Part shown: piece after piece, positions 1,201 through 61,119 of the stretch
Position numbering within the stretch: the first letter of the stretch is position 1
How the letters are laid out: every line of letters begins with the position of its first letter
DNA from: a virus
Length of the DNA: 64,000 nt
IMG/VR virus record: IMGVR_UViG_3300050505_000464
Direction: 5' to 3' (one strand)
Notes under the pieces: generated by a model
Seen by the model: the letters and a program-made list of their open reading frames with translations, nothing else
Databases searched by the model: none
What the model was told of the DNA's origin: nothing
Made by a program: the position numbers and the translations under genes

Positions 1201-1228
1201 GGAAGCTACGACGGGGACTGAGCGTAGG
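1201..1228 (+). promoter_or_regulatory. Putative ECF-sigma-type promoter, copy 1
   Basis: GGAAG(1201)-N17-CGTAG(1223-1227); ATG at 1236, 8 nt downstream. Confidence 0.5.
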
Positions 1229-1848
1229 AGTGGGCATGGCAAGAAATCTCGAGATCGAGCGCGCAGCGCGCATGGTGGCGAAACTGGGAGATTCTCTGCA
1301 GGTCGGGGGCCGTGTGCAGGGGAGCTACGATCGGAAACTCGCCCACCTCATCGCGCTCTGCGCCGAAGAGAGCTACATCGTGAAGGCCGCGCGCGTGCTA
1401 GTCCGTAGGATTGAGCATGTTGACGCTTTCCCCGATGCGATCGACGACGAAGACCTCGACTTATTGCATGATGAGATAGCTCGCGCCGGCGCACCGCCCT
1501 ACGAAGTTGGCACAGGCACCGAAACCGAAGACGATTGGGTCGCTCCGCTCCGAGCGGAGCTGACTCAGAGAAATCGATGATCCCCGCTCCTCTCGCCGCT
1601 GCCCTCGACGCGAAAGTGAAGGGCATGATCCGCCAGATCGAATGGGACTGGTCGCAGCTCCAGATGACGCTCGCTCGCGCCTTTGAAGAGCACATCGACG
1701 GCAACCACCCAGAAGCGCGCGTGCTGCTCAACCAAGCACTCGACATTGAGTGCGACGTGACGGGCGACTGCGCGCTGCTCGGTGACTTGGCTGAGGAGTG
1801 GGGCGTCGACTACGAGCGGGACAGGCCCTCGAGCCCGGAGGGCGGGAT

Positions 1849-1896
1849 AGCGTAACAGGTCGCCGTAACAGTGTCACCGGAACGCCCCCTGTTACG
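1849..1896 (+). repeat. CGTAAC-N7-CGTAAC direct repeat plus one inverted copy (putative operator)
   Basis: AGCGTAACAGGTCGCCGTAACAG at 1849-1871; CTGTTACG (reverse complement of CGTAACAG) at 1889-1896; intergenic. Confidence 0.55.
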
Positions 1897-1971
1897 GTAG
1901 AGGAAACCCCGAGAAATCAGCAGATTTCAGCCTGGCACGCGGGGTGCAGTAAAGCCTCCCATACGCCGCAG

Positions 1972-1998
1972 GGAAGGTCCCCGCGGCCCAAGCGTAGG
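1972..1998 (+). promoter_or_regulatory. Putative ECF-sigma-type promoter, copy 2
   Basis: GGAAG(1972)-N16-CGTAG(1993-1997); ATG at 2009. Confidence 0.55.
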
Positions 1999-2941
1999 AC
2001 AAGACACCATGACCCAACTCAGCCAAAGCGAGACTCAGGCGATCGAGACCACTCACCCGCTTCGCGCTGCTGTCGAAGCGGCTGAGACGACGTTGCGGTT
2101 CGCGCAGGACGCCTTCGCGGAGCTAAACGACGAGCTCTCTGGCGAAGACACCTATCTCGAGGTGGAGGCGGCGGCCGAAGCCGTGCGCAAGGCCGAGGCG
2201 GATCTCGAGCACGCCCAGAGCGAGCTCACCGATTCCGACTGCCCGCGCAAGTGGGCGCTCCGCGAAGAAGGTTTCGAGTACGATACGATCACGGCGGCGA
2301 GCGCCGAAGAGGCCCTCGGCATCGCTCGCGACAATTGCGACCGCGCCAACTACCCCGAGTCCACGGGCACGCTCTACATCGACGTGCGCGTGTCGTGCGA
2401 AGAGACCGGAGAGGACGCCTCCGAGACTGTCACGCTCGAGGCACCCGAGCCCGACTGCGCACGCGGCGAAACGCACGACTGGCAGTCGCCCCACTGCCTC
2501 GTCGGCGGCCTCGAAGAAAACCCGGGCGTACACGGGCACGGTGGCGGGGTCATCGTCACGGAGGTGTGCCGCCACTGCGGCTGCAAGCGCGTTCGCGACA
2601 CCTATGCCCAGAACCCCACGAACGGCCAGCAAGGGCTCGAGTCGGTCGAGTACGAGGAAGATGCCTACACGGCGGAAGAGCTCGCAGAAGCGTTTGGGGA
2701 AGAGGCGTGAGCTACTGCAGGCGCGGGCTCGACGGTTCGGACGTGTACCTGTACCCGTCAGGCATCGGAGAGGTGAGCCCAGACTGCCCGATCGTCTGCC
2801 AGGAATGCAAGCTGCAGCCGAGCGGCGATTACCTCGCTCACTCCCGCATGGCGGCCTTCGATCACCTGGGAGAGCACCAACACGCGGGGCACTCCGTGCC
2901 AGAGGCTGCGCTCCAGCGGCTGGAGCGGGAGATCGCCGCTG

Positions 2942-2962
2942 AGCGTAACAGGGACTCGTAAC
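2942..2962 (+). repeat. CGTAAC-N7-CGTAAC direct repeat (putative operator)
   Basis: AGCGTAACAGGGACTCGTAAC just before the ATG at 2967. Confidence 0.55.
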
Positions 2963-2966
2963 CCCC

Positions 2967-3500
2967 ATGAACATCTTCATTCTCGATGAAGACCCAGCGC
3001 GTGCCGCGCGCGATCTCTGTGACAAGCACGTCGTCAAGATGATTGTTGAGTCAGCCCAGATCTTGTCCACCGTCTATCGACAGGCGATGGAGCAAAGGTG
3101 GGGGCTCTCAGCCAAAGACCCGGCGCTGTTTCCTCGGCTGTACAAATCCACTCACCAGAATCATCCCGTGGTCAATTGGGTGAGGGAGTCGAGCCACAAC
3201 ACCGATTGGTTGTGGCAACATTTGCTGGGGATCGAGAAAGAGTACGCGCGGCGTTACCAGCGACTCCACAAAACCCAGGCTGTCATCCGCGAACTGAATG
3301 GGACTCGGTGGGCTATCTGGGAGGAGCTCGGCGATTGGCGTATGCACACCCCTTTTGCTCAATGTGTGCCGGAGAGGTACCGAGATCAGGGGGATGCGGT
3401 CCGAGCCTATCGAGCTTTTTACCGGGGCGAGAAGGCAAGGTTTGCGAAGTGGGCGCATCAAGCCGAGCCCACTTGGTGGGGGCCGCGCCTGGCCGCCTGA
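2967..3500 (+). CDS. Pyrimidine-dimer DNA glycosylase / endonuclease V-like protein
   Basis: N-terminus MNIFILDEDP..AA..LCDKHVVKMIVESAQILST and YKSTH.NHP motif typical of the phage T4 DenV-related family. Confidence 0.8.
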   Translation: MNIFILDEDPARAARDLCDKHVVKMIVESAQILSTVYRQAMEQRWGLSAKDPALFPRLYKSTHQNHPVVNWVRESSHNTDWLWQHLLGIEKEYARRYQRLHKTQAVIRELNGTRWAIWEELGDWRMHTPFAQCVPERYRDQGDAVRAYRAFYRGEKARFAKWAHQAEPTWWGPRLAA

Positions 3501-3527
3501 GGAAGATCTCTCAACCGTTTACGTAGG
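3501..3527 (+). promoter_or_regulatory. Putative ECF-sigma-type promoter, copy 3
   Basis: GGAAGATCT(3501)...CGTAG(3522-3526), spacer 16; ATG at 3535, 8 nt downstream. Confidence 0.65.
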
Positions 3528-3966
3528 ACTGATCATGGCACGCAAGAGCACCGGCTGGGGCTACAAGATCGACTACGCGAAGGCAATCGCCGAAGACCTG
3601 GCGGAGATCGCCCAGGTCGAGCGCCACGTTGCGCTCGCGGCGGTCTTGACGGACGACGAGCGCGCTCGTGGCCCGTACCATGTCCCCCTCTTCGTGTTCC
3701 TGATGACCGACCCGGTATCCCGCGCGCCGCTGCTCGGCCTGACCCTGGAGGCCGCTCAGGAACTCGCGTGGCACTGGGATTACGGGCAGGTCCCTGGGCT
3801 GACCGAGCCCCCTCCAGGGTGGTTCGCGCGCGCCTCAGCAAACGAGCAGCGGCTCGAAGAGACGTTCGGGTCGGACGTGATCTCGAGCCCACAAAAGCTC
3901 CTCGCCAAACTGCGGGCTCGGCTCGCCCGGCATCGTCGCAACGCGCAGAAAAACGGCTTCCCAGAG

Positions 3967-3987
3967 AGCGTAACAGGGCCCCGTAAC
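3967..3987 (+). repeat. CGTAAC-N7-CGTAAC direct repeat (putative operator)
   Basis: AGCGTAACAGGGCCCCGTAAC; same 13-nt periodicity as the other two copies. Confidence 0.55.
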
Positions 3988-4608
3988 ACCCCTGCCGTGT
4001 GACGGTCTCCCCGGGCCGTCACACCCTAAAAACCAGCCACATCCTCAGGTCTGACCCCTGGCACGACCCCTGCAGTACCCATCCCCATGACCCTCTCCAG
4101 CACCACCCGAAAGTCCGCCCTCCCCACCCATCAGATCCTCTGCCAGGGCTGCCAGAAGACCGGCCGCTACGACGCGACCCAAGGCGAGCGAGCCCCCTGG
4201 TGCACCTGCTCCACCTGCACCTACGGCCCCTACGTGGCCGCTCCGGGCGTCATCATCGCGCTCCGCTATGAGTCGCAAGAAGACGCCGCCTTCCGTGAGG
4301 AAGCGCGCCTGGTGAGCAATGCGGAGCGCGCCGCGCGTGACGCCCTGTCGGGCCGCTACGTGAAGGCGGGTAAGGGCTGGCGCGAGCTCCCGAAGACGAG
4401 CCCCAAGCGCCGCGTGCTCGAGTCGGCGTACCGCAAGGCCTGCCGCACCCAAGAGGCCGTGCAGGCCCGCTGCTCGCACCCGGAGCGGAGCCTGTTCAGC
4501 AAGGCTCACTGCGGGGTCTGCCACGCCTACGTTGAGTGCGACGTGGAGCAGCACCGTCACCTCGCGCGCGAGCTCGGCGCGCGCCAAGCGAACCGCTTGG
4601 CCGTCTGA

Positions 4609-4636
4609 GGAAGATCTCTCACCCCGATCACGTAGG
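4609..4636 (+). promoter_or_regulatory. Putative ECF-sigma-type promoter, copy 4
   Basis: GGAAGATCT(4609)...CGTAG(4631-4635), spacer 17; ATG at 4645. Confidence 0.65.
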
Positions 4637-5570
4637 ATAAGCCGATGGCAACGCACAACGACCCCGACCACCACGACGTGTTCCCCGGCGGCAGAGCTGG
4701 CCGGGAGGTAAACCCGGTGCCGCGCGTGCTTCCCGTGACCCAAGCCGACATCGACGACGTGCTCCGCCGTGCTGGGCTCCCGACCTCGCTCGAAGAGCCG
4801 ACCATCCCCGCTCCGCCCAAGACCTTCTGCGACCACGCAATCGGCCTCGAGATCTACGTGCCAGTCATCGACCCCCGCGGCTACCTGCGCGCCCCGATCG
4901 CCGTCCACGCTTCTCTCCTCACTCACCCCCTGTACTGAGCCTCACCATGAGCCTTGCCCGAGACATTCAGCAGACCTTGACCGAAGCGATCCTCGCCGAC
5001 TCAGCGAGCGCCCCCGCGCATCAGCAGCGGATCCCGACCGGTATCGACTTTGCCGATCCGGAAGGCCTCGACGCTTACGCAGCTCGCATTGAGGCGCTCC
5101 GCATGCAGGCGCTCCTCGACAGCGACGGCGGCCGTGCGCCCCTCGCTGACGAGCACTTCCTCATCGCACTCGACCTTTTGAGCCAAGCCATGCGCCACGT
5201 ACGCCTGGCGAGTCTCCATCAGGCAGCGGGGCTCGCCGCCCCGCGTCTCCGTTACTGACTCCCAACCATTCACCAGAGACCATTCCCATGAGAATTGCCG
5301 CCCACTTCCTGAAAGAGCTCATCGAACACTCCGGTCGTCTAAAAGATGGCCCCATCGGACAGATGGCCGTGCTCCGCATGGCGCTCGACCTCCGCGAAGC
5401 GCACGAAAAGATCGCCCAGCTCGAGAGCACGCTGGCGCTCCGCGAAGCCACGCAGAAGCCGCGCCCGAAGAAGGGCGCACTCGCGCTCGTGACCGAAGAG
5501 GTGGTCACGGGGCGCTTCGGGGATCCGCGCAGCGACGGCTACGAGGAAACCGCGGCAGTGCGTGAAGTGG

Positions 5571-5597
5571 GGAAGAAAGTCGACTACCGGGCGTAGG
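5571..5597 (+). promoter_or_regulatory. Putative ECF-sigma-type promoter, copy 5
   Basis: GGAAG(5571)-N16-CGTAG(5592-5596); ATG at 5605, 8 nt downstream. Confidence 0.5.
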
Positions 5598-6389
5598 ACC
5601 AGATATGGACCCGTTGACTCGAGACCGTATCATCGCGCTAGCAAAGCTCTTGGCGGACGCCGCCGCGAGCAAGCGCGCGGCGCCTGATGAGGAAAAGCCT
5701 CTCCACGACTTGGCCTGTGATGCGATCATTCATGAGTTGGTGAGAGTAAGCTTGTCTGATCACCCAATCGTGCAAGCCGCGCGCAAGCTCGTGGCCGTGA
5801 CGTTCGAGAACTCGTTCAACCGCATCGAGTTTCCTCTGGTGGACTACAAGCTCTTCGAGCGAGCGGTGAAAAACTACCCTTAACCACTACTCACGCTAGG
5901 AGCGGCCCCACGAGCTGATGTCGTGTCCTCCCCCGCTCCGATTCGTTCGCGGGGCCACTCCTGGCGTGAGATACACACTGGTGACCAATGGCCAGTCGCA
6001 AATCTCGAACCAAACAACACCGACGAGATCGTCGCAAGGCTAAGCAGTCGGGCTGGCGCCGCGAGCCCAAGCAGATGGGCGGTCACATTGGCCATGGTAC
6101 CTCAGGGGCGAAAACCACTGTGCCTACGACAAAAAGAAAACTGTCTCCTCACGCTGCTGCGCCGGCTCCCGGCGCGCCGCTCACCTTCACTCTGGAAGGC
6201 GCGCTGAAAAAGCCATGACTCCGCGCGCCCACAAGAGCAGCGTCGCCGGCACGAACTACGTGATCTTCGTGTGGTGCGGCAGGACACGCGGCGCGGTCAA
6301 CTCTTACCCGGACGGCTACGTGTCCCCTGATGCGCCCGAAGCAGAAGAGCAGACCTGCCAGGCCTGCATCACGGCGCGGGACTTCGCAG

Positions 6390-6416
6390 GGAAGATCTCC
6401 CGCATGCGTGCGTAAC
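6390..6416 (+). promoter_or_regulatory. Putative ECF-sigma-type promoter, copy 6
   Basis: GGAAGATCT(6390)...CGTAA(6411-6415), spacer 16; ATG at 6424, 8 nt downstream; no Shine-Dalgarno in between. Confidence 0.6.
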
Positions 6417-6423
6417 ACCTAGC

Positions 6424-7602
6424 ATGACCTTCTCGCTCCTCGTTCCCCAAGAAGCCCTCCCAAAGGTGCTCAAGCGCCTGGACAAGCTCGCCTGCTCGGC
6501 GGGCGTCCTGATCGAGGAGGTCCCCGGCACGACCACCCTGATCCGGGAAAAGAGCGTGCTCACCTGCGCGCGCCTCACCATCGGCGATCTGCCGAGCGTC
6601 GGCGGCTACGAATTCGTGGCGCGCATCGAGCACGGCAAGGAGGGCAACATCATCGCCCGCGGCCCGAAGGAGACGGAAACGCTCGATACCTCCTGGCGCA
6701 CCGCCGCTCCGCTCTGCGAGCACTGTGGCAAGCAGCGCTCGCGAAAGGAGACGTTTCTCCTGCGTCAGTACGGCATGCGCATCATGCAGATCGGTCGCAA
6801 TTGCCTGGCTGACTTCCTGATGGTCAACCCGGCGCAGCTCGTCGCCATCGCTGAGCTCGTGAAGAAGGTCTCGGACGAGATGGGCGACGAGTACTGGGGC
6901 GGCTATGGCGGCTTCTGGGAGGTCGCGCCGATCGCTTACCTGGCGTGCGCCGTTGCGACAACGGAGCGCGACGGATTCGTGAAGAGCAAGGATCCCTCCG
7001 ATCGCATGCCGACGCACGCCGTCGCGACTTGGCTGAGCCAAAGCTCACCGGGCAGCGCCGAAGCGCACGCTCGCTGGCTCGCCGGGCAACCGAACGAAGA
7101 CCACATCGAAACCGCACACGCCGTCCTCGCCTGGGCCGCCAATCCCGGCGAAAACCCCTCCGAGTACCGCTGGAACCTCTCCCTCGCTGTCAAGGCCTCC
7201 GGGGTCGGCAAGCACGCGGGGCTCCTCGCCAGCGCGCCGGCGGCCTACAACTGTGAGCTCGGCAAGCTCGTCCAGAAGAAGCTCCCTGCAAAGCGTCCCG
7301 AAGGCTACGCGGTAGAAAAACACATGGTCTTCAAAGGAGAGGTAACGCTCGTGCGCCACTACCTCATGCAAAACGACTTCGGCTCGAAGGCGATCTGCAC
7401 GTTCCGGACGGACGAGGGCCACGAGCTCGTCTGGTTTGCTTCCGGCATCGCGCCGAAGCCCGACATGCAGGGCATGCGCTTTCAGATCAAGGGACGCTGC
7501 AAGGCCCTCAAGCCGGCGCAGGGCAAGTACGCGCAGCAGGCGGTGCTCGCGCGGGTGACCTGGAAACCGATCGAGCAAAAGGAAGAGAGCCAAGCGCCAT
7601 GA
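6424..7602 (+). CDS. Phage-type hypothetical protein with CxxC...C Zn site and probable C-terminal OB-like domain
   Basis: 392-aa ORF; CEHCGKQRSRKETF...QIGRNCL motif; beta-rich C-terminus. Confidence 0.5.
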   Translation: MTFSLLVPQEALPKVLKRLDKLACSAGVLIEEVPGTTTLIREKSVLTCARLTIGDLPSVGGYEFVARIEHGKEGNIIARGPKETETLDTSWRTAAPLCEHCGKQRSRKETFLLRQYGMRIMQIGRNCLADFLMVNPAQLVAIAELVKKVSDEMGDEYWGGYGGFWEVAPIAYLACAVATTERDGFVKSKDPSDRMPTHAVATWLSQSSPGSAEAHARWLAGQPNEDHIETAHAVLAWAANPGENPSEYRWNLSLAVKASGVGKHAGLLASAPAAYNCELGKLVQKKLPAKRPEGYAVEKHMVFKGEVTLVRHYLMQNDFGSKAICTFRTDEGHELVWFASGIAPKPDMQGMRFQIKGRCKALKPAQGKYAQQAVLARVTWKPIEQKEESQAP

Positions 7603-9781
7603 CTATGCCGGACTCAGAACTGGACCTAGCCAATCAGCGCATAGCGTGGCTCGAGGACGAAGTCGTTCGACTAAAAAGAGACTGGATCTCTCCTCACGAA
7701 AGCCAAGAGCTTCGCGGCAAAGCTTGGGCCGATGGCCACGCGGCGGCTCTTCGTGGTGTCAATGATAATCCGTATCTGCCGGTGCCTTCCCCAAGAAAGA
7801 GCCAGCGATGAGCGATCCCATCTGCGGCACATGCGGAGAGCCCAAGTCCAAGCACGTCAAGACGGCGCTCGGGCCATTCACGCACCCGCGCGAAGCGACC
7901 GGCGAAGGAGCCTACGTGCTCGTCCATCAGGGGCACACCATGGGCAGACTCAGCCCAGCCGACGACGAGATCTACGTCCCGCCGGGATACAAGTTCGTGA
8001 GGCATCATGACCCAGCGGACGCGGAGGATTCCGGATGACGATCGAAGCCCCAAAGCCTCGTCGCGAGCTCTTCATCTGGTGGACAACCGACCAAGAAGCG
8101 CGGGAGCCCGGCCTCGCCCGAAACTTGCCCGAGTACGTGCAAGAGCAGTACCTATTGAGGTGGGCAGCGCGCGGCCGGGCGCAGCTGTTTGCGTCGGAGA
8201 AGTTCGGGAGGCGCGAGATCTCCGAATGGCCTCCGACGATGATCGCGAGCATGCTCAAGGAAGGAACCTCCGACGGCATCGTATTCGTGAGTAGTGACCT
8301 TCCGGATTTCAAGGGCGTGCCGGGTCTCGTGACTGATTTCAAACTCCGAGTGGTGGTGATCTGAATGTACAACTGCTTCGGTAAATGGTCGTGTTGCTGC
8401 GTCATGAGGCACATTTCATTCCACGATGATGCCCCTGAACCCAGCAAGGTTCCGGTCCAACGTCCGTGGTGGAAGTTTTGGTGATGACCGACGACAATCT
8501 CCGCCACATCCGGCCCCTGCTCGCGCTCCTAGTCATCCCTGACGCGCACCACGCGCGCGTGACCGTCCGCGGCGACCGAACCATGACGCCGACCGAGGCA
8601 CGCGCTCACGCGATCGAGGTGCTCTACGCCGCCGACGAAGCCGAAGGTAACGAGGTGCTGGGGGCGTTCGGGTACGATGCGGACGACTCGAAGCACCTGG
8701 GCGAGCTCCGCATGCTGATCGACGAAGAGCTCGGCTGGGAGGACGACGAGCAGGAGTGCGACGGGGACTACGCCACGCGCGTCAAGCAGGTGGGCGAGAT
8801 CTTGCGGCGTAAGCTACGGGTGGTGAAGCCATGACTTGGACCAACAGCAAACTCGGTCGTCAACGTGACTGGAACATCTTGCGCCTGGCCCTCTTCGAGG
8901 ATGCCCCTGGGCAATGGGAGCTATGCTTGTACCTGCGCCCCGGCGTCACGCTGGGCGTGACGAGTGGGAGCGTCATCCCTGGGCACGCGCCGAGCGATCA
9001 GGTGCCGCGTATTGCGAAGATCCCATTCGGTGGGCCGTTCTACTTGGGGCGGCGCGAGGCGGAGGAATGGGCCGTGCAATTAGCCGGCAAGTGGCTTGAT
9101 GAGCACCTGGAAGAACTCATCGCAGGAAAGAGGTTTAGCGTATGACCGTCATTGAAGCGATCGATCAGCTGGATGAGGAGTTCGCAGAGCTCGATCCCAG
9201 CGTTACGCTCACTGTCGAGCAAGGCAGGGAGCTGCTCCTGTGTTGCAAGCGGCTCGCGCTCTGGTGCAGAGCGTTGAGCCGGCAAATCGATCAGGTCGAC
9301 GAGGGCGTTTCTGCGGTTGCTCGAGGCTTGCAGGCGACCGAGCGTTTCGTCGGGGCCCCGCAACCATGATCCCCGCCCCGACTCCCGAGCAAGCCGTCCA
9401 CGTGCTCGAGATCTTGGAGCAGTGGACGCAGCGCGGTTGGCGCTACGAGGTTGACCCGAAGATCAATCGCGCTCCTGGCGAAGCAGAATCGGTCTTCGTT
9501 CATTATACAAATCCCGATAACCCGTACGGATGGGTGATGCGCGCCACGGAGTCGGCAGACTTTGCCCCGGTGCTCCGCGCACGCGGCGTGAACCACTTCG
9601 ATGCTCTCTGCCAGGCCACCACGGCGATGCAAATGCTACTCGAAGAGTACCCGGAGGAGACCTGATGCCCCACAGCTCACGCCAGTGCCGTCCCAGGCAC
9701 GCCTGGAGCCTTCGCCGATCTCTTCTATACCGAGAACGGGTGCCTCGCCCAGCTAGTTGAAAAGCTGTATCCTCCTCCGAA

Positions 9782-10798
9782 GTGAGCGATTTCCTCGGCC
9801 GCCCCGATCCCCTGCATCTCTCCCCGCCCCAGCGGCTGGAAGCAGAGCGCCTCTACGCGCGGGCGCTCCGCTTCGAGCGCGAAGGCACGCCCGCCAACAC
9901 CAAGCGCGCCTACGAGGGGGACTGGAAGCGGTTCGAGGGGTGGTGCGCGGCCTGGGGGCACCGCGCGCTCCCCGCCTCGCCACAGGTCGTGATCCTCTAC
10001 GTGACGTACCTGGCCGATCCGGAGCGTCCAGGAGGCTCGCAGAAGCCGAGCACTATCGAGCGGGCCATGGCAGCGCTCAGCCACTACCACAAGGTGCGGG
10101 GCTACGTGCCGCCCCGGCAATCGATCCACGTGCAGCAGCACATCCGCAAAGTCAAGAACGCGCTCAAGATGGCCCCCGAGCAGGCGCCACCGCTGCTCGT
10201 CCGGCACCTGGAGAAGATCGTCGCGCGGATGCCGGCGACCGATCCCATTGCCATGCGCGACAAGGCGCTGCTCCTCGTTGGATGGGCCGGCGCGCTCCGG
10301 CGGAGCGAGATCGCAGCGCTCGATCGCCCGCACGCGGTGTTTACCCCGGAGGGGATCCAGCTCACCATCGCTTCTTCGAAGACCGACCAAGAGGGGCAAG
10401 GCGAGCTCATCCCGATCGAGCCCGCCAGTAACCCCGATCTCTGCCCCGTCGGAGCCCTGCGCACGTGGCTTGATGCCAGCCCCGACGTGATGGAGATCGT
10501 CCAGGCAGTCTTCCCCCGCACCTACTACGGCGGCCTCGTGCTCGATCGCATGCCGGAATGGGAGGTCAATGACGTGGTGAAGAAGTGGGCGCGCAAGACG
10601 GGCATCACGCCCGACCAGCCAGGGGTCGAGTTTAGCGGGCACTCGCTCCGGGCGGGATTCATCACGGAGGCAGCGCGCGCGGGGCGCCCCGAGTGGCAAA
10701 TCATGACCCACTCGCGACACAAGAGCTACGAGAGCTTCCGCGGCTACATCCGCCGCGCCAACCTCTTCCAAGACAATCCGGGACGAGGCCTCCTTTGA
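9782..10798 (+). CDS. int: Tyrosine recombinase / site-specific integrase
   Basis: LRRSEI (Arg box I), SKTDQ (Lys), SGHSLRAG (HxxR), SRHKS and C-terminal YIR; N-terminal SAM-like domain (TKRAYEGDWKRFEGWC). Confidence 0.92.
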   Translation: MSDFLGRPDPLHLSPPQRLEAERLYARALRFEREGTPANTKRAYEGDWKRFEGWCAAWGHRALPASPQVVILYVTYLADPERPGGSQKPSTIERAMAALSHYHKVRGYVPPRQSIHVQQHIRKVKNALKMAPEQAPPLLVRHLEKIVARMPATDPIAMRDKALLLVGWAGALRRSEIAALDRPHAVFTPEGIQLTIASSKTDQEGQGELIPIEPASNPDLCPVGALRTWLDASPDVMEIVQAVFPRTYYGGLVLDRMPEWEVNDVVKKWARKTGITPDQPGVEFSGHSLRAGFITEAARAGRPEWQIMTHSRHKSYESFRGYIRRANLFQDNPGRGLL

Positions 10799-12293
10799 AC
10801 CCATTCGATCTCCCTGAACAAGGCTCCGGTGAGCCCGTCAAGACTCGGTGCCCGTGCGGCGCCGAGCGCTCCGAGTCGGACATCTTGTGCCCCGTGCTGA
10901 TCGATGTGCGGCCTATTGAAGGCGGCAGGCTCATCGAGCGATGCTACATGCAATCGCGGTGCTGCAGCCAATGCGGGACCCTGTACACGCTCCTCGAGCG
11001 TCACTCCACCCAATAGACCATGAGCTTCGAGGACGAGGACCCCCAAGACTGGGTCACCGAGATCTTTGCCGAAGCGCAGGAGTCGGTGTCGATGTTCAAG
11101 CGGGTGGCGGGCATGCTCGGCCAGGCGGGATCGATGCGCGTCACGGGGCGCGCATTCCGCGAGCGCCTGCGGCGCGCCGGCATCCGGCCCCCGAAGCCCC
11201 GGATGAATGCCGCACCCGGGGAGTTTGCACGGAAAGCCCATCCGTGTCTCTTGTGCCGGAAACTCCCTCAAGAGTATGGTTCTTGTCGGTGCGCCGACTG
11301 CAACCAACAGCGTCGCCTCAAGCGGCGCCATCCCTCTCGACCCGCGCGCACCCAGGACTCCCCATGAACTTCGACAACATGACTCAAAAGGCACTCCGTC
11401 ACTGCTTCGTTCCGGCTGACCAAGCGAGCCTCACGCTCGTGTTCATGGACGGCATGCGGCGATCGTTTGGCTTCGGGGCGGGCAACGTGAAGTCACTCAC
11501 GCAGCCCAATGACACCGAGGGCTGCGTCTTCTCTGGCCAGGTCACGCTCGGCCCTGCCGAGCCCAATCTCCGCTCGATGATCTTCGACACCGATCGCGGC
11601 CCCATCACGCTCACGTACGGCGTCATCGATCCTCAAGTGGTGCCCGTCGAGCTCCCCGAGTGAGTCGCATCGCCGCACGCGAGAAGTTCCTGTGGCGCGG
11701 CTGGGAGTTTCGTCAGTCGCACGCCACAAGCAAAGAGGTGCACTGGGAGATGCGGCTCCCGAAGCTCCGCGTGCGGCTGATCTATCGCGACATCCAAGAT
11801 CCCGAGGTGCCCCCCGAGTGGACTGCGCTGATCCACTTTCAGGGGCTCGAGGAGGGGCGAGGCGAGAGCCACGAGGGGGGTAACGGCGTCGGGGGGAAGC
11901 CCGAGATCGCGCTAGCGCTAGCGGAGCGAGACTTCCTGCAGAAATGCGCGCACGCGGCGAAGCTGTCGGCCGAATTGCGCCGGGGAAAGCCGCCTGATCC
12001 GGAAGGTTGACAGCGACATGCCATCAGCGTAGTGTCAGAGCCGTGCCTGAACACAAGGTCGTGATTCCCAAATTTGTCTGCTGGGCAGAAGGGCCACTCG
12101 GCGCGATGGCCCCGACAGTACTCCGCGCGCTGACCGCAGCTGACGCGATCTCGCAGGCAGAGTTGCTGCTTCGCAGGAGAGACTACTGGAAGCTAGCCCG
12201 GGTAGAGCCCTACGACCCAACTGGCACGCATCAACTGATGAAGTTTTCTATCGAGCCCTGGGGATCCGGGGCCGCAGCAGAGTTCTGAGCCAG

Positions 12294-12320
12294 GGAAGAT
12301 CTCCCGATCACACCACGTAG
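12294..12320 (+). promoter_or_regulatory. Putative ECF-sigma-type promoter, copy 7
   Basis: GGAAGATCT(12294)...CGTAG(12316-12320), spacer 17; ATG at 12329, 8 nt downstream; no Shine-Dalgarno in between. Confidence 0.65.
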
Positions 12321-14915
12321 CACCCACCATGCCCATTGCGCTCGTCTACATGATCATCCCTGCCTACCTGCTCGTCGGCTGCCTCATCATGCTGGCCGCC
12401 AACGAGTGCCTCGACGGCTGCGTGACCCGCATGGAATTCGTGCGCGGCATGTTCCTGTGGCCAATCCTGCTCACCTACGTGACGCAAAACTGCTACCTCG
12501 ATCTCCGCGCGCAGCGCCGCCGCGCGCTCTTGAGGCGCCGTGGCTAAAGCCGCCATCACCACCGATCTGTCGCACGCCATCGAGGCGCTCGCGCACTTTG
12601 CGCCGTACTCGACACACCCCGACCGCCGCCTCTGGAAGAGCATCATGCTCAACCTCCACGAGGTCGAAGCGGTGCTGCTCACCATGGAGGCATTCGCACC
12701 CGGAAAGCTCCGCCTGCTCGAGGCCGCCGCCTGCGACGAGCTCCACGTCGAGCACGCCGACCCGATCCAGGAGGTATCAGACCTGGTGGATCGCTACTGC
12801 TCGAGGCGGGAGAAGCTCCGGTGAGCGTCCACGTTGCCCGCGCCGAGCGCGCCCTGATCATCGCCGCTCGAGAAAAAGCCCCTCTATCTATTTTGCGGAT
12901 CTACGCGGCGGCGTACGGCAACTGCATCAGCCTCAGCAAGCTCCCGGCAGAGGCCACGACCCTGCTGCACACTTGTGAATCCTGCACAGATCCCGCTGTG
13001 CACGGCGAATGGCATTTCGGCAAATCGCGTTTCTGGTGCGTCGAGCACACCCCCATGTCGGGGCACTGGGAGCACTGCGGCACGCCCTGCGAAGCGCTCT
13101 GCTGTGGAGACCTCCCATGAACGCCCGCATCCTGCCCGCGTCGCACAATGCCCTCCTCCGCGCCGAGGATGCCCGGCGCGAGTGCCTCGCCCGCATCGAC
13201 GAGCGCTTCGGATGGCTGAAGCGCCTGGTCGCGCTCCAGGGCGGCGCCGTCGAGTCCCTCGAGCCCCATCAGCGCCTGCTCTGGCATGCGCGCGAAAGCG
13301 TCGTCGGGACGTACAACCGCGTCAGCCAGATCCCGAACCTCGAGCGGCGAGAGCGGGCGTACCGCCGGCTCGCGGCGGAATGTACGAGGCTCCGGTGACC
13401 GACTATACCCGCGCCTTTCCCGTCGAGTCCTACCGCTATCGAGTCATGACCGAAGAGTGCCCGCGCTGCGGAGCCCGTCCTGACCATCACTGCTCCGAAT
13501 ACGTAGAAAACGTGCAGTACCGAGGCGCATTTAGTCGCCAGCCGGTGCACCCGCACCTGATCCGCCAGTCGCCTCCCACGAGCGCTGAGCCATGAGCAGG
13601 CGCGCCATGCTGCTGCTCAACTGCACGCGTTGTGACGACGTGGTGAAGCTCGTCGAGAAGGTGCGGACCTGCGAGTGCGGCGCAGCGCGGGGCAAGCTGA
13701 GCGACAGCGGCGAGGTCGAAGCGCTTGGATCCGCCCGAGTGCTCGCCATCAACTGGAGATCGTACGACGGACTTGGGGGTGGTGGAGAGGGGGCAATCGG
13801 CGTTCTGCCGCAAGCTCAGTACCGAGCGAAAGGCAGCGAATGAGCTTGCCCGCCGATGATGAGATGGTATCCACCATGCCAGATGGAGGGACTATGGTCG
13901 ATTTAGACACGCCGATGCTGTTCTCAGGGGCACTGATGATTCGCGTCAACGGTGGTTGCCTGCGTGTAGCAACACTTCGCGCCGTACAAGAAATTCTCGC
14001 CAAGAATGGCCTGGATCTGTGTCCTAAGGGTACGGTCAACTGGACAGAAAACTACCCCCTGCGAGAAACCCTCGCAAAAAGGGAGGCGGAGTTGCTCCAG
14101 GAGCTGGAGACACTGCGCGAGCGCATAGGAAAGAACTCGCACCGATGACCATTCCCGATGACTTCTCCTGCGTCGCCGATGCTCTCGACTGGAAACCCGG
14201 AGATCCCGCTCCGACTGAAGCACTGGAGCGCATCCGGAAAGAATTCGACGCGCTCCGCGCGCAGCTGCTCCAACTCGAGCTGAGCACTGCATCAGCAACA
14301 TCCGCGCCCATCCCGCCCTACGACCAAGGCTTCCGCGACGCCCTCCTCACCGTGAAGGCACGCCTCACCGCGATCCTCTCCGACCCGACTGAAACGCAGC
14401 CGCTCGCGCACCTAGAAAAAAACCTCAATACCCTCATCGATCGAGCCAACCTCGACCTGTGGAAGCTGTTCGCCGTCGCCGAGGCCGATCTCTCCGTACA
14501 TCCCGAAGCCGAGGCCCTGCGCGCCATGCTGCGCGCTCCGACGGGCGTGCTCATTGACTCCGCCGGACGCATGCTCTTCGTACGCCTGAACGGCACCGAG
14601 TATGACACGGGGGTGCTCGCGCTGCTCGATGAAGTCGCACGGCTCAAGTCCGCTAACCAGGCTTTGCGCGAAGGTGCAGCGATCCTCTCGCGAGCTGCTC
14701 GGCCCATGGATTTTATGACGGTAGTCATCAATGGGGTGCATTGTCGCGTCGAACGCTTCAAACCGATGACCTATGAGAGCTTGGTGTTGCTCTCTGGTCA
14801 GCGCAATGCCGCCATCACCTACCGCGGCGAGGGGATGTGGGGTAAATTCGAGGGCACGCTCACGCCTGGCGGGTCAATCGTCGTGCCACCGGATACAGTG
14901 CTCAGGATCGAGTAG

Positions 14916-15641
14916 CTAGGCCTGATCCCGGTGCTTCGGGCAGTAGGGCCAGCCCTTCGGATCGAACTTCCACCCCGCCGCGAGCGCAGCCTCCTCCGCT
15001 TCATCCAGCGTTTCGCAGCCGGGACTCTCGGCGTAACAGGCGCGCGCATGGCAGCCGAAGTGCTCCCCTTCTGTTTCGGGAGCAGGGATGTGCTCCGGAC
15101 AATAAGTCCCCTCGTCGCCTATCGACCAGCCTGCCGTTCGGGCTGCCTGATCTGCCGCTTCAGCGGTGCGGCGCGCAGGGCTTTCAGCTAGGCACCCCGG
15201 ATGATCGCAGGCGCATAGGTGCTCGTCCTCCTCCTCCTCGTCGTCGTCTTTGTCTTCCTCACCCTCGTCCACATCAGATTCGTCTTCCTCCTCCTCGGGC
15301 TCTTCGTACTCGTTGGCGCTCTTGAGGATACCCTCGAAACTTTCAATCGCTGTATCGAGCGCCAAGTGCACCGACTCGAATGCGGCATCGACGATGAGCG
15401 CGTCGAGATCCAGCTTCGGATCGACCATCACCGGGGCAATCTCGGCGTCCTCATCGAGCTCATGTGAGATCTCGTCCCATTTTTCGAACTCGGCGCTGAT
15501 CGCGTCGTTGCACTCGAATACTGAATCGAGCGCGGATAGTACCGTCTTCTCACGCGCCTTGAGCGTCGTCTGGCAAGCACGGAGACGCTTGAGCAGCGCT
15601 TCGGTTGCCTTGCCGAGCTTCTTCGCGTCGCTTTGCTTCAT
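14916..15641 (-). CDS. Acidic hypothetical protein with two tandem C-x4-C...GW...YCPxH putative Zn modules
   Basis: Helical N-terminus, poly-D/E linker, repeats CDHPGCLAESP..AGW..YCPEH and CHARACYAESP..AGW..YCPKH. Stop codon abuts the stop of the + strand arm. Confidence 0.6.
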   Translation of the reverse strand: MKQSDAKKLGKATEALLKRLRACQTTLKAREKTVLSALDSVFECNDAISAEFEKWDEISHELDEDAEIAPVMVDPKLDLDALIVDAAFESVHLALDTAIESFEGILKSANEYEEPEEEEDESDVDEGEEDKDDDEEEEDEHLCACDHPGCLAESPARRTAEAADQAARTAGWSIGDEGTYCPEHIPAPETEGEHFGCHARACYAESPGCETLDEAEEAALAAGWKFDPKGWPYCPKHRDQA

Positions 15642-16505
15642 CTATTCCTCGACGAAGCCAGGTGGCGGTTCGTCGACTTTCGCAAGCACGCGCTTGATGT
15701 CGACCCACATGCCGCTTCCCTGCTGATCTTGCCAGTACGAGTTCGACGCCTCCATCGCTTCGTGGAAGCAGGCGTAAAGATCTTCGTCCGACACCTCACT
15801 CGCATCCCCCGTAAACTTCGCCTCGAGCCCCTTGCGGAATTCGCTCTCTGCCCAGTTGTTCCAGGCCTCTTCGGATTGCTCTTGTTCGAGCTCGGAGAGG
15901 GACTCATCGTCGATGGACGGGTAGTCGTCGAGCGCTGCCAGCGCTTCCACGATCTCGTCAGGCGTCGTGTAGACGTTAAAAAAGATCGCGTATGTCCCGT
16001 GTCCACCATGGGCCGTCACGTAGAATTGGTTACCGTGCTCCTCTTCGAGCTCTCGGGCCATCTCGCACAACTGATTGTAGTTGTTCAGGTGGACAGTCCC
16101 ACCCGAGTAGTCGCTGCCGACCGAGTAGTCAGAGCCCCACCAATCACCATTTTGATCTCGGTGCACTCGACCATACGAGACTCCCGCGGCGCCTGCGTCC
16201 TCTGCGTCGATGTCGTAAAAATCTCCCTGCTGGAGATCTTCGAAGCGCGCCCGGGCGTCTGGGTCATTGCCTGCGTTACGACGGTGACGAGGGTTCACGA
16301 CGAGATCTCGCGAGCTGCCCCGCCACGTGCCGCGCTTCTCCGGATCGAAGGGCTTCTCGGCGACGCGGTGCTCGCGCGCCAGGCGCCGCACGCGGTCAAG
16401 GGAACTCTCCCGGCTGGCACCCGCGCCAGCTGGCGAGTGCAAGCGGTGGCGGAGCGGGGGAGGAGCGACCGGCAAACGGTTTGCGCGCAGGCGGGAACGG
16501 GGCAT
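15642..16505 (-). CDS. Hypothetical protein (basic N-terminus, acidic C-terminus)
   Basis: 287-aa ORF directly abutting the next gene; start codon uncertain. Confidence 0.55.
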   Translation of the reverse strand: MPRSRLRANRLPVAPPPLRHRLHSPAGAGASRESSLDRVRRLAREHRVAEKPFDPEKRGTWRGSSRDLVVNPRHRRNAGNDPDARARFEDLQQGDFYDIDAEDAGAAGVSYGRVHRDQNGDWWGSDYSVGSDYSGGTVHLNNYNQLCEMARELEEEHGNQFYVTAHGGHGTYAIFFNVYTTPDEIVEALAALDDYPSIDDESLSELEQEQSEEAWNNWAESEFRKGLEAKFTGDASEVSDEDLYACFHEAMEASNSYWQDQQGSGMWVDIKRVLAKVDEPPPGFVEE

Positions 16506-16548
16506 GCCATGAAGGGTACCTGAGCCGAGCCGAGGCGGTCAATTTCTA

Positions 16549-16581
16549 GGGGTGAGAGGGGGCGAGGGGGCGAGGGGGCGA
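16549..16581 (+). repeat. (GGGGGCGA)x3 tandem repeat; G-quadruplex-type motif
   Basis: G-runs at 16549-52, 16558-62, 16566-70 and 16574-78 in an intergenic spacer. Confidence 0.7.
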
Positions 16582-16591
16582 GCTGCAGGAA

Positions 16592-16915
16592 TCAGGACTG
16601 AGCCGGATAGTACCGGGTCGAGCGCGTCTTCCCCTCTTTCCGGACTTCGCCCGCGTCCAGCAGCCGAATCATGGACAAAAATAGCTCCTTCGGGGAGCGG
16701 CGAACGATCTCGCTCAACTCCTCGATCGTGCTGCCGGGAGCGTCGGTGACCCAGCGGAATAGATGCTTCGCTAGTCTGTCGACCTCTTGGGTCGAGCGCT
16801 TACGCCGTCGATTGACTTTGGCCTCATGCCGCATCTTCGCCTGACTTGGATGCTCGATCGCGAACAAGATCTCCTGGCGGATCTGCTCGCGCAAGACCGT
16901 CTCCACGTTGCTCAC
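16592..16915 (-). CDS. Small winged-HTH DNA-binding protein, myxobacterial nucleoid-protein-like
   Basis: Basic linker (RRRKRSTQEV) then PGSTIEELSEIV..SPKEL...L...GEVRKEGKTRSTRYY. Resembles by recall a Polyangiaceae family ending in KG.KRAT.Y. AAGGA RBS before the GTG. Confidence 0.55.
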   Translation of the reverse strand: MSNVETVLREQIRQEILFAIEHPSQAKMRHEAKVNRRRKRSTQEVDRLAKHLFRWVTDAPGSTIEELSEIVRRSPKELFLSMIRLLDAGEVRKEGKTRSTRYYPAQS

Positions 16916-16959
16916 GAATTCCTTGCACAGGTTCCTGAGGGAATTTTTTCATGTTGATG

Positions 16960-16987
16960 CCTACGCTTTCGAGTCCCCAGATCTTCC
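16960..16987 (-). promoter_or_regulatory. Putative ECF-sigma-type promoter, copy 8 (minus strand)
   Basis: Reverse complement reads GGAAGATCT...CGTAGG, spacer 17; an ATG at 16952 lies 8 nt downstream; the wHTH gene starts at 16915. Confidence 0.6.
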
Positions 16988-21824: not shown

Positions 21825-22205
21825 TCAGAGGCCCGGGACGACTTCGACCGTCGTCGCGTCGAGCTCGTAGTACGTCGCGTTTTGAAGCGTCTTGACGAGC
21901 ACGCACTCTTTGGTGTTGTTGCGGTTGTAGGCGTCGACCACGACCGCGTTGTAGGACGAAGAGCCATCCGTCACGACCACGACCTTGCCCATCAAACCGA
22001 GCGTCGTCGTATTGGCCGCGAACAGCTCATCGAGCACGCCGAGCGGCACCGTCGCTTGCTGGCCGTTTTCCCAGTCGATGACGTAGGGGCCGCCGCCGGC
22101 TGTCTCGCTCACCCCAAACACCGGCGGCTGGGCGGTCACCTGCCCGAGCACGAGGTTATTTCCAGTGACCTTCAGCGCGACACGACTTCCGATTCCAATG
22201 GCCAT
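21825..22205 (-). CDS. Beta-rich hypothetical protein (possible tandem SH3/KOW-like halves)
   Basis: 126 aa, Val/Gly/Thr-rich, two similar halves (IGSRVAL.../MGKVVVV...). Confidence 0.5.
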   Translation of the reverse strand: MAIGIGSRVALKVTGNNLVLGQVTAQPPVFGVSETAGGGPYVIDWENGQQATVPLGVLDELFAANTTTLGLMGKVVVVTDGSSSYNAVVVDAYNRNNTKECVLVKTLQNATYYELDATTVEVVPGL

Positions 22206-22532
22206 CGACGGGAAGGCTACCGGGGATCGTGGGCCGGGGTCAAGTTCTTGGGTCGGGGCGCGTCGGGCGGTCCCAAGTGCCGTCTAATAGGCTCTGCACG
22301 ACGGAGAAGGTCTCGAGCAGGGAAGGCTCGAAGATCCCCTGGGCAATCATGTCCGCCACGTCATGACCGAGGCGGTAGGCGCAGATGCAGTCCTCGTAGC
22401 CTCGATCCCACTCCATGCGAGCGTCCTGGTCGCCCTGATGGCCACGCTCTTTGGCGGTCCTAAAGCTCGCTCTGTTTTCCGAGATCTCTTGGAAGGCCGT
22501 CCGAAAGCCCGACTCATGATACCAGGAGTCCA

Positions 22533-37941: not shown

Positions 37942-38063
37942 AACCCGGCTAAACCGTTGCGGTGAGTGGAAGCCTAAAAGACCGGGCGATCTTCGTCAAC
38001 TTTTTGAGGTGAGTCGGAACGGTTTTTCTTCGATCGCTGCGATCGGCCTAAAAACAGCCTCGA

Positions 38064-60486: not shown

Positions 60487-61119
60487 TTGATCCGGTACGA
60501 CCCGCCCGCTCTCACGATCTCGCTGTAGAAGTGCTCGCGCATGGGCACCGGACTCGGATCGCCGATGGGCTCCTCGCGCTCCGAGTCCGGTCCCGTCAAG
60601 CGCCCCACCACCTCCTGCACGTAGGCGACGCGGTGCGCCTCGCTCAGGTGGTAGGAAGATCCCGCGTCATAGCGCGTGCCATCGGGCATGGTCACGATCC
60701 ACCGCTGCTTCAGCACCACCGGCAGCTGATCCTTCGACTCCGTCATCAGTATGCCTTTCTCTGAAAGGTTCCACACCCGTACTTGGCCGCGTAGCCACGG
60801 ACGGTCTTGTCGCGTTCGGTCTTCGGATGCCACGTGTACGCGCGGTCCTGGTTGAGCTTCTCCCGGTGTCCCGCGCTCGAGAGCTTCTTCATCTGGAGCT
60901 CCACCGATTTATCGCGCTCGCGGGCGTCCGGCGCATACGCCACCGGACGAAACCATTCGTCGGGCTTTCCCGGCCCCGCGAGCTCTACCTCGCCGCCGCC
61001 GAAGCGCTCTTGCTCCGTGCGTTGACCGATGAAGTACAGAGGCTGGAGCCCGAGCGCGCCGCGCAGGGCATCAACGAAGTAGCGGAGTTCGTACGTCTCG
61101 TCCGGCAGGCGGTCGACCG

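Follow-up and report, generated by a model that had tools for sequence, protein, structure and literature searches.

Along one arm of a large soil virus genome, two short boxes recur at a fixed spacing and mostly a fixed few nucleotides ahead of an ATG, which raises the question of what kind of signal they form and which machinery would read it. The stretch concerned (hereafter the window) comprises 64,000 nucleotides (nt) of IMG/VR virus record IMGVR_UViG_3300050505_000464, part of a virus genome of 135,429 bp that carries a ThyX gene and whose DNA is present in rhizosphere metagenomes. Genes running rightward from position 1 to ~14.9 kb of the window are mostly small and of unknown function, and those running leftward from 64 kb down to 14.9 kb carry replication, virion and modification functions. 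A first-pass annotation had read eight copies of the element GGAAG-N16/17-CGTA(G/A) as promoters for an extracytoplasmic function (ECF) sigma factor giving leaderless mRNAs. Comparison with related genomes supports the promoter part of this proposal: the element combines two boxes, a rigid spacer, strand specificity and deep conservation, and some copies stand without an ATG. It is probably a real, conserved and virus-specific promoter class producing leaderless mRNAs; from sequence comparison we infer its promoter nature, its start site and the kind of factor that would recognize it.

A pattern search recovered exactly eight matches in the window, seven on the plus strand (starting at 1201, 1972, 3501, 4609, 5571, 6390 and 12294) and one on the minus strand (at 16987), the same eight as listed originally, and re-measurement of the distances from CGTA(G/A) to the ATG reproduced the series of 8, 11, 8, 9, 8, 8, 8 and 8 nt. 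Dinucleotide-preserving shuffles contain a mean of 0.35 copies (maximum 3), and 0 of 100 reach eight. A weight matrix built from the copies in this and the related genomes and scanned over both strands of the window gave a bimodal outcome, with the eight sites at 21.7–28.6 bits and the next best match at 15.4 bits, while a Markov null yields 0.2 matches of at least 16 bits per window. By both measures the motif lies far above background. The statement that the structural and replication arms are free of copies holds within the window; two extra copies, both minus-strand in the window's orientation, lie just past its right end (L027, ~64.17 kb and 69.1 kb). The best sub-threshold match (60654–60690 on the plus strand, 15.4 bits, composed of GGAAGATCC, 16 nt, CGTGC, 8 nt and ATG) is antisense inside minus-strand replication genes and could be either chance or an antisense promoter.

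The conservation of the element was assessed in a comparison set of 186 kb, comprising the window's genome (including the stretch past its right end) and five relatives, L001–L005; in all, 83 kb of the window's own 135-kb genome were read, and L002 was read over 51 kb, including 30 kb to its left. These viruses form a clade of uncultured soil or rhizosphere viruses of ~120–136 kb. Deposited phages contain no close match to the window, single-protein scans of viral contigs found no close relative, and alignment scans of viral and genome contigs returned only relatives of at most 33% identity, all without the motif. The 392-amino-acid (aa) protein encoded at 6424–7602 gives a graded series of homologues, from 98% down to 50% identity, on contigs of 120–136 kb.

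Of the 43 pattern matches in the comparison set, 40 lie on the local coding strand. A metagenome scan revealed further copies, with the consensus unchanged, in L067 (six within 4 kb) and L082, lineages whose linked protein is 37–39% identical. Controls gave a very different picture: a tailed phage with a 43%-identical homologue (L006) has zero copies, twenty other loci (378 kb, some of equal G+C) contain stray matches only, none of them followed by a suitably spaced ATG, and a single match turned up in ~475 kb of distant metagenome loci. Taken together, ~850 kb of unrelated or distant DNA are essentially motif-free. All examined clade members have a copy ahead of the 392-aa gene, with the boxes, the 16/17 spacing and the 8-nt gap kept (one genome has GGGAG instead of GGAAG), while the spacer and flanks in this region differ throughout between clade members. 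Such fixed boxes and spacing around a free spacer are the signature of DNA recognition by a two-domain protein. The copies precede unrelated genes, and many are intergenic.

The consensus reads (g)GGAAG(a)(t)n(t)(c), with 16 or 17 nt in total between GGAAG and CGTA, followed by CGTA(G/A)nA. The spacer measures 16 nt in 26 of the 43 copies and 17 nt in the other 17, and orthologous spacers are unalignable. CGTA is present in all copies, and the base after it is G or A, never C or T, in 33 of 33 examined copies with an ATG at 8–11 nt. An alignment of 30 copies has GGAAG, CGTA and ATG as its sole invariant parts; it shows no inverted repeat, and RNAalifold predicted 0 base pairs in it. A structured RNA was rejected on this result, an integron attC-like site on the grounds that the boxes are not complementary, a sigma-70 −10 reading as TAnnnN because its final base is T in only 9 of 33 copies, and Dam/GATC dependence by the presence of GATC in fewer than half of the copies.

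An ATG follows CGTA(G/A) in 35 of the 43 copies, at a distance of 8 nt (21 copies), 9 nt (11) or 11 nt (3), and the base at −1 of the ATG is C in 18 of the 21 copies of the 8-nt class, so that a pyrimidine (−1) and a purine (+1) would flank the start. In the genes downstream of copies, orthologues align from residue 1 onward, and for five of the seven plus-strand window copies the AUG is the first possible start of its frame, the ATG having been part of the search criterion. The other eight copies have no ATG, with a purine at the predicted +1 in seven of them, and demonstrate that the element exists apart from translation starts. One of these (L002 3237) is directly followed by the palindrome GACAGTTCGGTACTGTC, of which a near-identical form occurs inside a sigma-70-like promoter elsewhere in L002; given this immediate succession, the copy looks like a repressible promoter with a leader. 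Two others, at L003 6447 and 8637 (both plus strand), are alike near the boxes (GGGAAGGTGACGG ... CGTAnCAAG-GG-AGAG), lie 85–90 nt before the next called genes and may represent paralogous leaders or small RNAs.

A further regularity concerns the upstream genes. In 15 of the 43 copies (in the window, L001–L005 and L027), the upstream gene has the TAG or TAA of the −10 box as its stop codon, so that the whole promoter would lie within coding sequence. All 15 have the 16-nt spacer, as compared with 11 of the 28 copies elsewhere (Fisher p = 6e-5), which places the boxes in frame as GGG-AAG ... nCG-TAR. The proteins upstream of these copies end in Gly/Arg-Lys plus six residues (the last encoded by an nCG codon) and the stop. 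If this approximate third of all copies drive leaderless genes, upstream translation would end exactly where transcription of the next gene begins.

We favor, with moderate confidence, the interpretation that GGAAG-N16/17-CGTA(G/A) is a promoter class specific to this virus clade and recognized by a bacterial RNA polymerase carrying a non-housekeeping subunit of group-4 (ECF-type) geometry, from which leaderless or near-leaderless mRNAs are made. The specificity subunit would contact the −35 box (g)GGAAG(a)(t) with one domain and the −10 box CGTA(G/A)nA with a second; RNA polymerase would then initiate on the A of the ATG or 1–3 nt upstream, and, in the small-gene arm, each short operon would have its leading gene expressed from a leaderless or near-leaderless mRNA. 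Initiation on or near the A of the ATG is predicted from the end of the −10 box 8–9 nt before the ATG together with the usual C at −1. In the open complex of Mycobacterium tuberculosis (Mtb) sigma-H, GGAAYA occupies −34 to −29 and GTT −11 to −9, with an optimum spacer of 17 bp (bioRxiv 10.1101/534826), and this numbering, when laid on the viral motif, puts +1 at the A of the ATG or the base before, in agreement with the observed distance from the −10 box to the predicted start.

The ECF assignment itself is made by resemblance of the layout. Like the promoters of B. subtilis sigma-W (TGAAAC-N16-CGTA), alphaproteobacterial EcfG (consensus GGAAC-N16-CGTT; PMC7083833) and Mtb sigma-H, the viral element has two short stringent boxes, of GGAA type at −35 and with a CGT core at −10, separated by a rigid spacer of 16–17 bp with free sequence. 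Its CGTA is exactly that of sigma-W, in which this −10 element confers selectivity in B. subtilis (PMC5758882). It differs in that the −35 box ends in AAG, not AAC, in that the sequence read yielded neither a cognate sigma gene nor an anti-sigma gene, and in that the sites are viral and most of them locked 8–9 nt before an ATG.

Several observations weigh against the ECF-type, leaderless interpretation. The AAC triplet is almost invariant in ECF −35 boxes (PMC7083833), and every viral copy has AAG in its place; the search pattern was defined with the G of GGAAG, and mismatch-tolerant matrix scans found no AAC variants among the high scorers. In ~40% of copies AGGA lies 6–7 nt before the ATG and could serve as a Shine-Dalgarno (SD) sequence on read-through transcripts, which puts the −10 box at the position of a ribosome site. 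In line with the caution originally attached to the proposal, the copies at 1201, 1972, 3501, 4609 and 5571 read CGTAGGA, and those at 6390 and 12294 have no SD-like run, as had been said; the copy at 16987 likewise has none. A core SD is found in only 37% of the other confident genes, so that its absence adds little to the leaderless case, which rests instead on the fixed distance from −10 box to ATG common to this class and to the sigma-70-like promoters described below. In the 15 copies in which TAR is the upstream stop, conservation at that position is possibly in part coding-related.

The search for the factor weighs on the same side. A cognate ECF sigma gene would encode sigma-2 and sigma-4 domains, and such genes are as a rule autoregulated and accompanied by an anti-sigma gene. 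Pfam found no sigma-70-family domain among 84 window proteins, and none was seen in the genes of the 19 kb past the window, outside which the original proposal had advised looking for a virus-encoded sigma, or of the 51 kb of L002; PHROGs gave no sigma candidate among 41 window proteins, PDB sequence searches of three candidate proteins gave no sigma match, and atlas look-ups of a 241-aa and a 249-aa protein yielded no usable result. When 2,559 viral frames were searched with a profile made from 15 Gemmatimonadota ECF sigma genes, the best E-value was 0.023, for the N-terminus of the 241-aa protein family, to which hhalign assigned 2% probability. This family was rejected as a sigma factor on that value and on its acidic-linker and Cys-His architecture. 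In the literature, no sigma factor with a GGAAG/CGTA consensus was found.

A search on the host side gave background values, which are compatible with Gemmatimonadota, or any other phylum, as host. The motif occurs 51 times in one Gemmatimonadaceae metagenome-assembled genome (MAG), vs. 79 for the control; with N8-ATG appended it occurs 44 times in 151 Gemmatimonadota genomes (~540 Mb), vs. 32 for the control, and none was found upstream of 30 sigma genes of Gemmatimonadota genomes. The host hints are weak and disagree, the ThyX homologue coming from one Gemmatimonadaceae MAG and the M20 amidase homologues from Proteobacteria; they point to Gemmatimonadota or Proteobacteria and lend no support to the myxobacterial link drawn in the first-pass annotation. 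The label of early genes given there to the downstream genes is likewise unsupported. The absence of drift in the boxes down to 37% protein identity mildly favors a conserved host factor over a fast-evolving viral one. That the clade drives a regulon of leaderless genes through a host stress (ECF-type) sigma switched on by its entry, or through a factor of its own without recognizable sigma-70-family domains, is a tentative and somewhat unlikely scenario.

Alongside the GGAAG/CGTA element, the genomes contain a second class of sites that resemble sigma-70 promoters. A conserved TTGACC-N18-TACCCT-N7-ATG precedes a 287-aa gene in all six genomes, with free spacers (window 16542–16503, minus strand; counterparts at L001 19252, L002 19547, L003 17271, L004 19327 and L005 19341). 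With TACCCT located 7 nt before the ATG, the start of this gene is placed at 16505 (287 aa) rather than at the GTG at 16391, and its mRNA would be leaderless. A similar TTGACC-N18-TAGCCT-N8-ATG at 22243–22205 (minus strand) adjoins the ATG of gene 21825–22205. On the plus strand, TTGACA-N17-TAGTGT at 12007–12035 is conserved in the relatives as TTGACA-N17-TAG(T/C)GT (L001 13838, L002 16271, L003 13404, L004 15309, L005 15407), where its spacer contains a palindrome, GACAG-N7-CTGTC, that looks like an operator; a palindrome of the same type follows the GGAAG-class copy L002 3237. The window promoter at 12007 lies ~290 nt upstream of the seventh GGAAG/CGTA copy and precedes a 60-aa open reading frame (ORF) at 12106–12288, which may encode a small helix-turn-helix regulator. 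Further sigma-70-like sites, of TTGAC/TAGGCT type with a TAGGCT or TACGCT −10 box, are found on the minus strand at 37999–37971, 48678–48649 and 54811–54782 and precede virion or other operons, with leaders of 30–75 nt. Sigma-70-like sites are not enriched in the arm from 1 to 20 kb (3 vs. 2.5), and no plus-strand terminators were found in that arm.

The presence of these ordinary sites indicates that the housekeeping promoter of the host is conventional and that GGAAG/CGTA is a distinct class. Both classes put the −10 box 7–9 nt from the ATG, which suggests that leaderless geometry is general in this system. Leaderless transcripts from promoters that abut the start codon are known, for example lambda cI transcribed from PRM and many genes of Actinobacteria and Deinococcus. 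The viral sites share with them a −10 element 6–9 nt before the AUG, which would form the 5′ end of the mRNA; in the known cases the −10 boxes are of the housekeeping type, whereas here housekeeping-like and GGAAG/CGTA classes occur together.

The window also encodes a conserved 241-aa protein (14916–15641, minus strand), a member of the family rejected above, with orthologues in L001, L004 and L005. Its N-terminus is helical, its acidic linker is long, and its C-terminus carries a CxCDHPGC...GW...CPxH motif (duplicated in the window copy). Its gene appears to share with the 287-aa gene a transcript made from the conserved sigma-70-like promoter.

That a phage may have a promoter consensus of its own is well established. 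The late promoters of Salmonella phage 7-11 (GTAAtg-N16-aCTA), which are read by the phage sigma gp47 and start 6–9 bp after the promoter element (PMC8948821), offer a close geometric parallel: in both cases the genome holds about eight copies of a bipartite promoter peculiar to the phage, in phage 7-11 with a 16-bp spacer, beside ordinary sigma-70 promoters. In phage 7-11, however, the sigma gene is known and late structural genes are served, whereas here no sigma gene was seen, the genes are small and non-structural, and the sites abut start codons.

In the window, the individual copies are arranged as follows. The first (1201–1227, plus strand; 21.7 bits) has GGAAG at 1201–1205, a 17-nt spacer and CGTAG at 1223–1227, followed after 8 nt by the ATG at 1236 of ORF 1236–1580 (plus strand). 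The second (1972–1997, plus; 25.6 bits), with a 16-nt spacer and CGTAG at 1993–1997, is separated by 11 nt from the ATG at 2009 of ORF 2009–2710 (233 aa) and has an orthologous copy at L001 4355. Five copies (at 3501, 4609, 6390, 12294 and 16987) extend to GGAAGATCT, as reported initially. Among these, the third copy (3501–3526, plus; 27.9 bits) directly follows the TGA of gene 2967–3500 and precedes the ATG at 3535 of ORF 3535–4002 (plus), and the fourth (4609–4635, plus; 17-nt spacer, 27.9 bits) directly follows the TGA of gene 4087–4608 and precedes, by 9 nt, the ATG at 4645 of ORF 4645–4938, with an orthologous copy at L001 6242.

The fifth and sixth copies exemplify the overlap with upstream stops. 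The former (5571–5596, plus) lies inside the 3′ end of gene 5288–5596, with the TAG of CGTAG as its stop, ahead of the ATG at 5605 of ORF 5605–5883, and is kept at orthologous gene ends in L001, L002 and L004; the latter (6390–6415, plus) lies inside the 3′ end of gene 6215–6415, with the TAA of CGTAA as its stop, ahead of the ATG at 6424 of the conserved 392-aa gene. The seventh (12294–12320, plus; 17-nt spacer) precedes the ATG at 12329 of ORF 12329–12547, and its orthologues in L002 and L003 are likewise preceded by a copy, the L001 counterpart being degenerate (TGTAA). The eighth (16961–16987) is the sole minus-strand copy of the window, and the ATG at 16952–16950 after it opens a frame of 42 codons only. 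A 107-aa frame (16592–16915, with a GTG start and weak winged-helix matches) begins 37 nt further downstream, for which reason this copy may give a leadered mRNA. Across window genes, CCC or ACC is often found just before the ATG.

An alternative is that the element acts after, or apart from, transcription initiation, with CGTA(G)GA as a marker of translation starts or a target for a virus RNA or protein, and with GGAAG(ATCT) as the site of a virus regulator. The precedent is the start-associated sequence (SAS) of Cluster K mycobacteriophages, a contiguous 13-bp word around AGGAG located 3–7 bp before the start, whose extension (ESAS) is a 17-bp imperfect inverted repeat and whose function is unproven (PMC3203893). 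The viral element behaves much like it, as a conserved asymmetric word a few nucleotides before the ATGs of non-structural genes, in one orientation, sometimes overlapping the upstream stop, placed before unrelated genes and conserved across subgroups (PMC3203893); as with SAS, which is rare in host genomes, it is absent from the candidate host genomes. The AGGA at SD distance in ~40% of copies and the near-palindromic, operator-like −35 box consensus GGGAAGATCTCCC also speak for this possibility. On the other hand, the SD core is missing in ~60% of copies, the right half of the −35 palindrome is kept in only 60–70%, and in eight copies a properly spaced start codon is lacking, one of these copies being followed by an operator-like palindrome. 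Moreover, in contrast to a 13-bp word centered on a ribosome-binding site, two invariant boxes 16/17 nt apart with CGTA as conserved core have the architecture of a promoter, and unlike ESAS the element shows neither an inverted repeat nor a predicted RNA fold, its −35 box being only a partial palindrome. On balance, a role outside transcription initiation appears rather improbable.

Equally to be weighed against an ECF-type subunit is a virus-encoded RNA polymerase or a non-sigma retargeting factor, either a divergent polymerase or an activator plus appropriator as in T4 MotA/AsiA. Such a factor would be in keeping with the lack of a sigma gene in the sequence read, with the occurrence of the motif below regulon level in the 151 Gemmatimonadota genomes (and its absence before the 30 sigma genes), and with the ~52 kb of the 135-kb genome that lie outside the sequence read. 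However, neither the 83 kb read of the window's genome nor the 51 kb of L002 showed a polymerase-like domain, and two boxes 16/17 bp apart, the −10 box being of CGT type, are what sigma factors typically recognize, whereas promoters of single-subunit polymerases are contiguous. In addition, the boxes are constant down to 37% protein identity, while the specificities of virus factors tend to drift, as illustrated by the sigma factors of phages phiEco32 and 7-11, which are 15% identical and use unrelated promoters (PMC8948821). We consider recognition by a viral polymerase or non-sigma factor quite unlikely.

That there is no functional element at all, with the copies arising from chance, codon usage or repeated homologous gene ends, has a negligible probability: AGATCT is 3.6-fold over-represented across the window (probably through codon usage, and relative to first-order Markov shuffles keeping dinucleotide frequencies) and 15 copies overlap coding 3′ ends, but the 0.35 copies in shuffles, the matrix scores, the unrelated downstream genes, the many intergenic copies, the orthologous comparison, in which boxes are kept where flanks and spacers are not, and the control loci of equal G+C, without copies at the right distance, exclude a chance or codon artefact. 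Against the same shuffles, GTAC is 2.6-fold over-represented and CTAG 3-fold depleted in the window.

Some features of genome layout vary within the clade. In L002 (L028–L030), genes for DnaJ, glycosyltransferase and methyltransferase form a block upstream of the small-gene arm, on the same strand; in the window (22–30 kb) such a block lies downstream of that arm on the opposite strand. The contigs of three other relatives stop ~9–10 kb upstream of the 392-aa gene, and these ends may mark a genome terminus or a repeat. In L003, a TnpB/Cas12f-like (IS605 OrfB) gene is inserted in the small-gene arm (2381–4153), with a GGAAG/CGTA copy at 4072 within its 3′ end.

Overall, the interpretation of the element as a clade-specific promoter class of ECF-type geometry would give an undescribed group of large soil viruses its first transcription map, with two promoter classes, one housekeeping-like and one virus-specific, both often placed for what would be leaderless mRNAs. 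The finding is an ordinary one in kind and not surprising, and its usefulness lies in the annotation and recognition of this virus group. The motif would settle which start codons ~60 clade genes of unknown function truly use, and it can serve as a sequence tag for recognizing clade members, given that ~850 kb of other DNA contain essentially none of it. A missing factor in the biology of these viruses is also indicated, which may be either an alternative sigma of the host or an unrecognized viral one.

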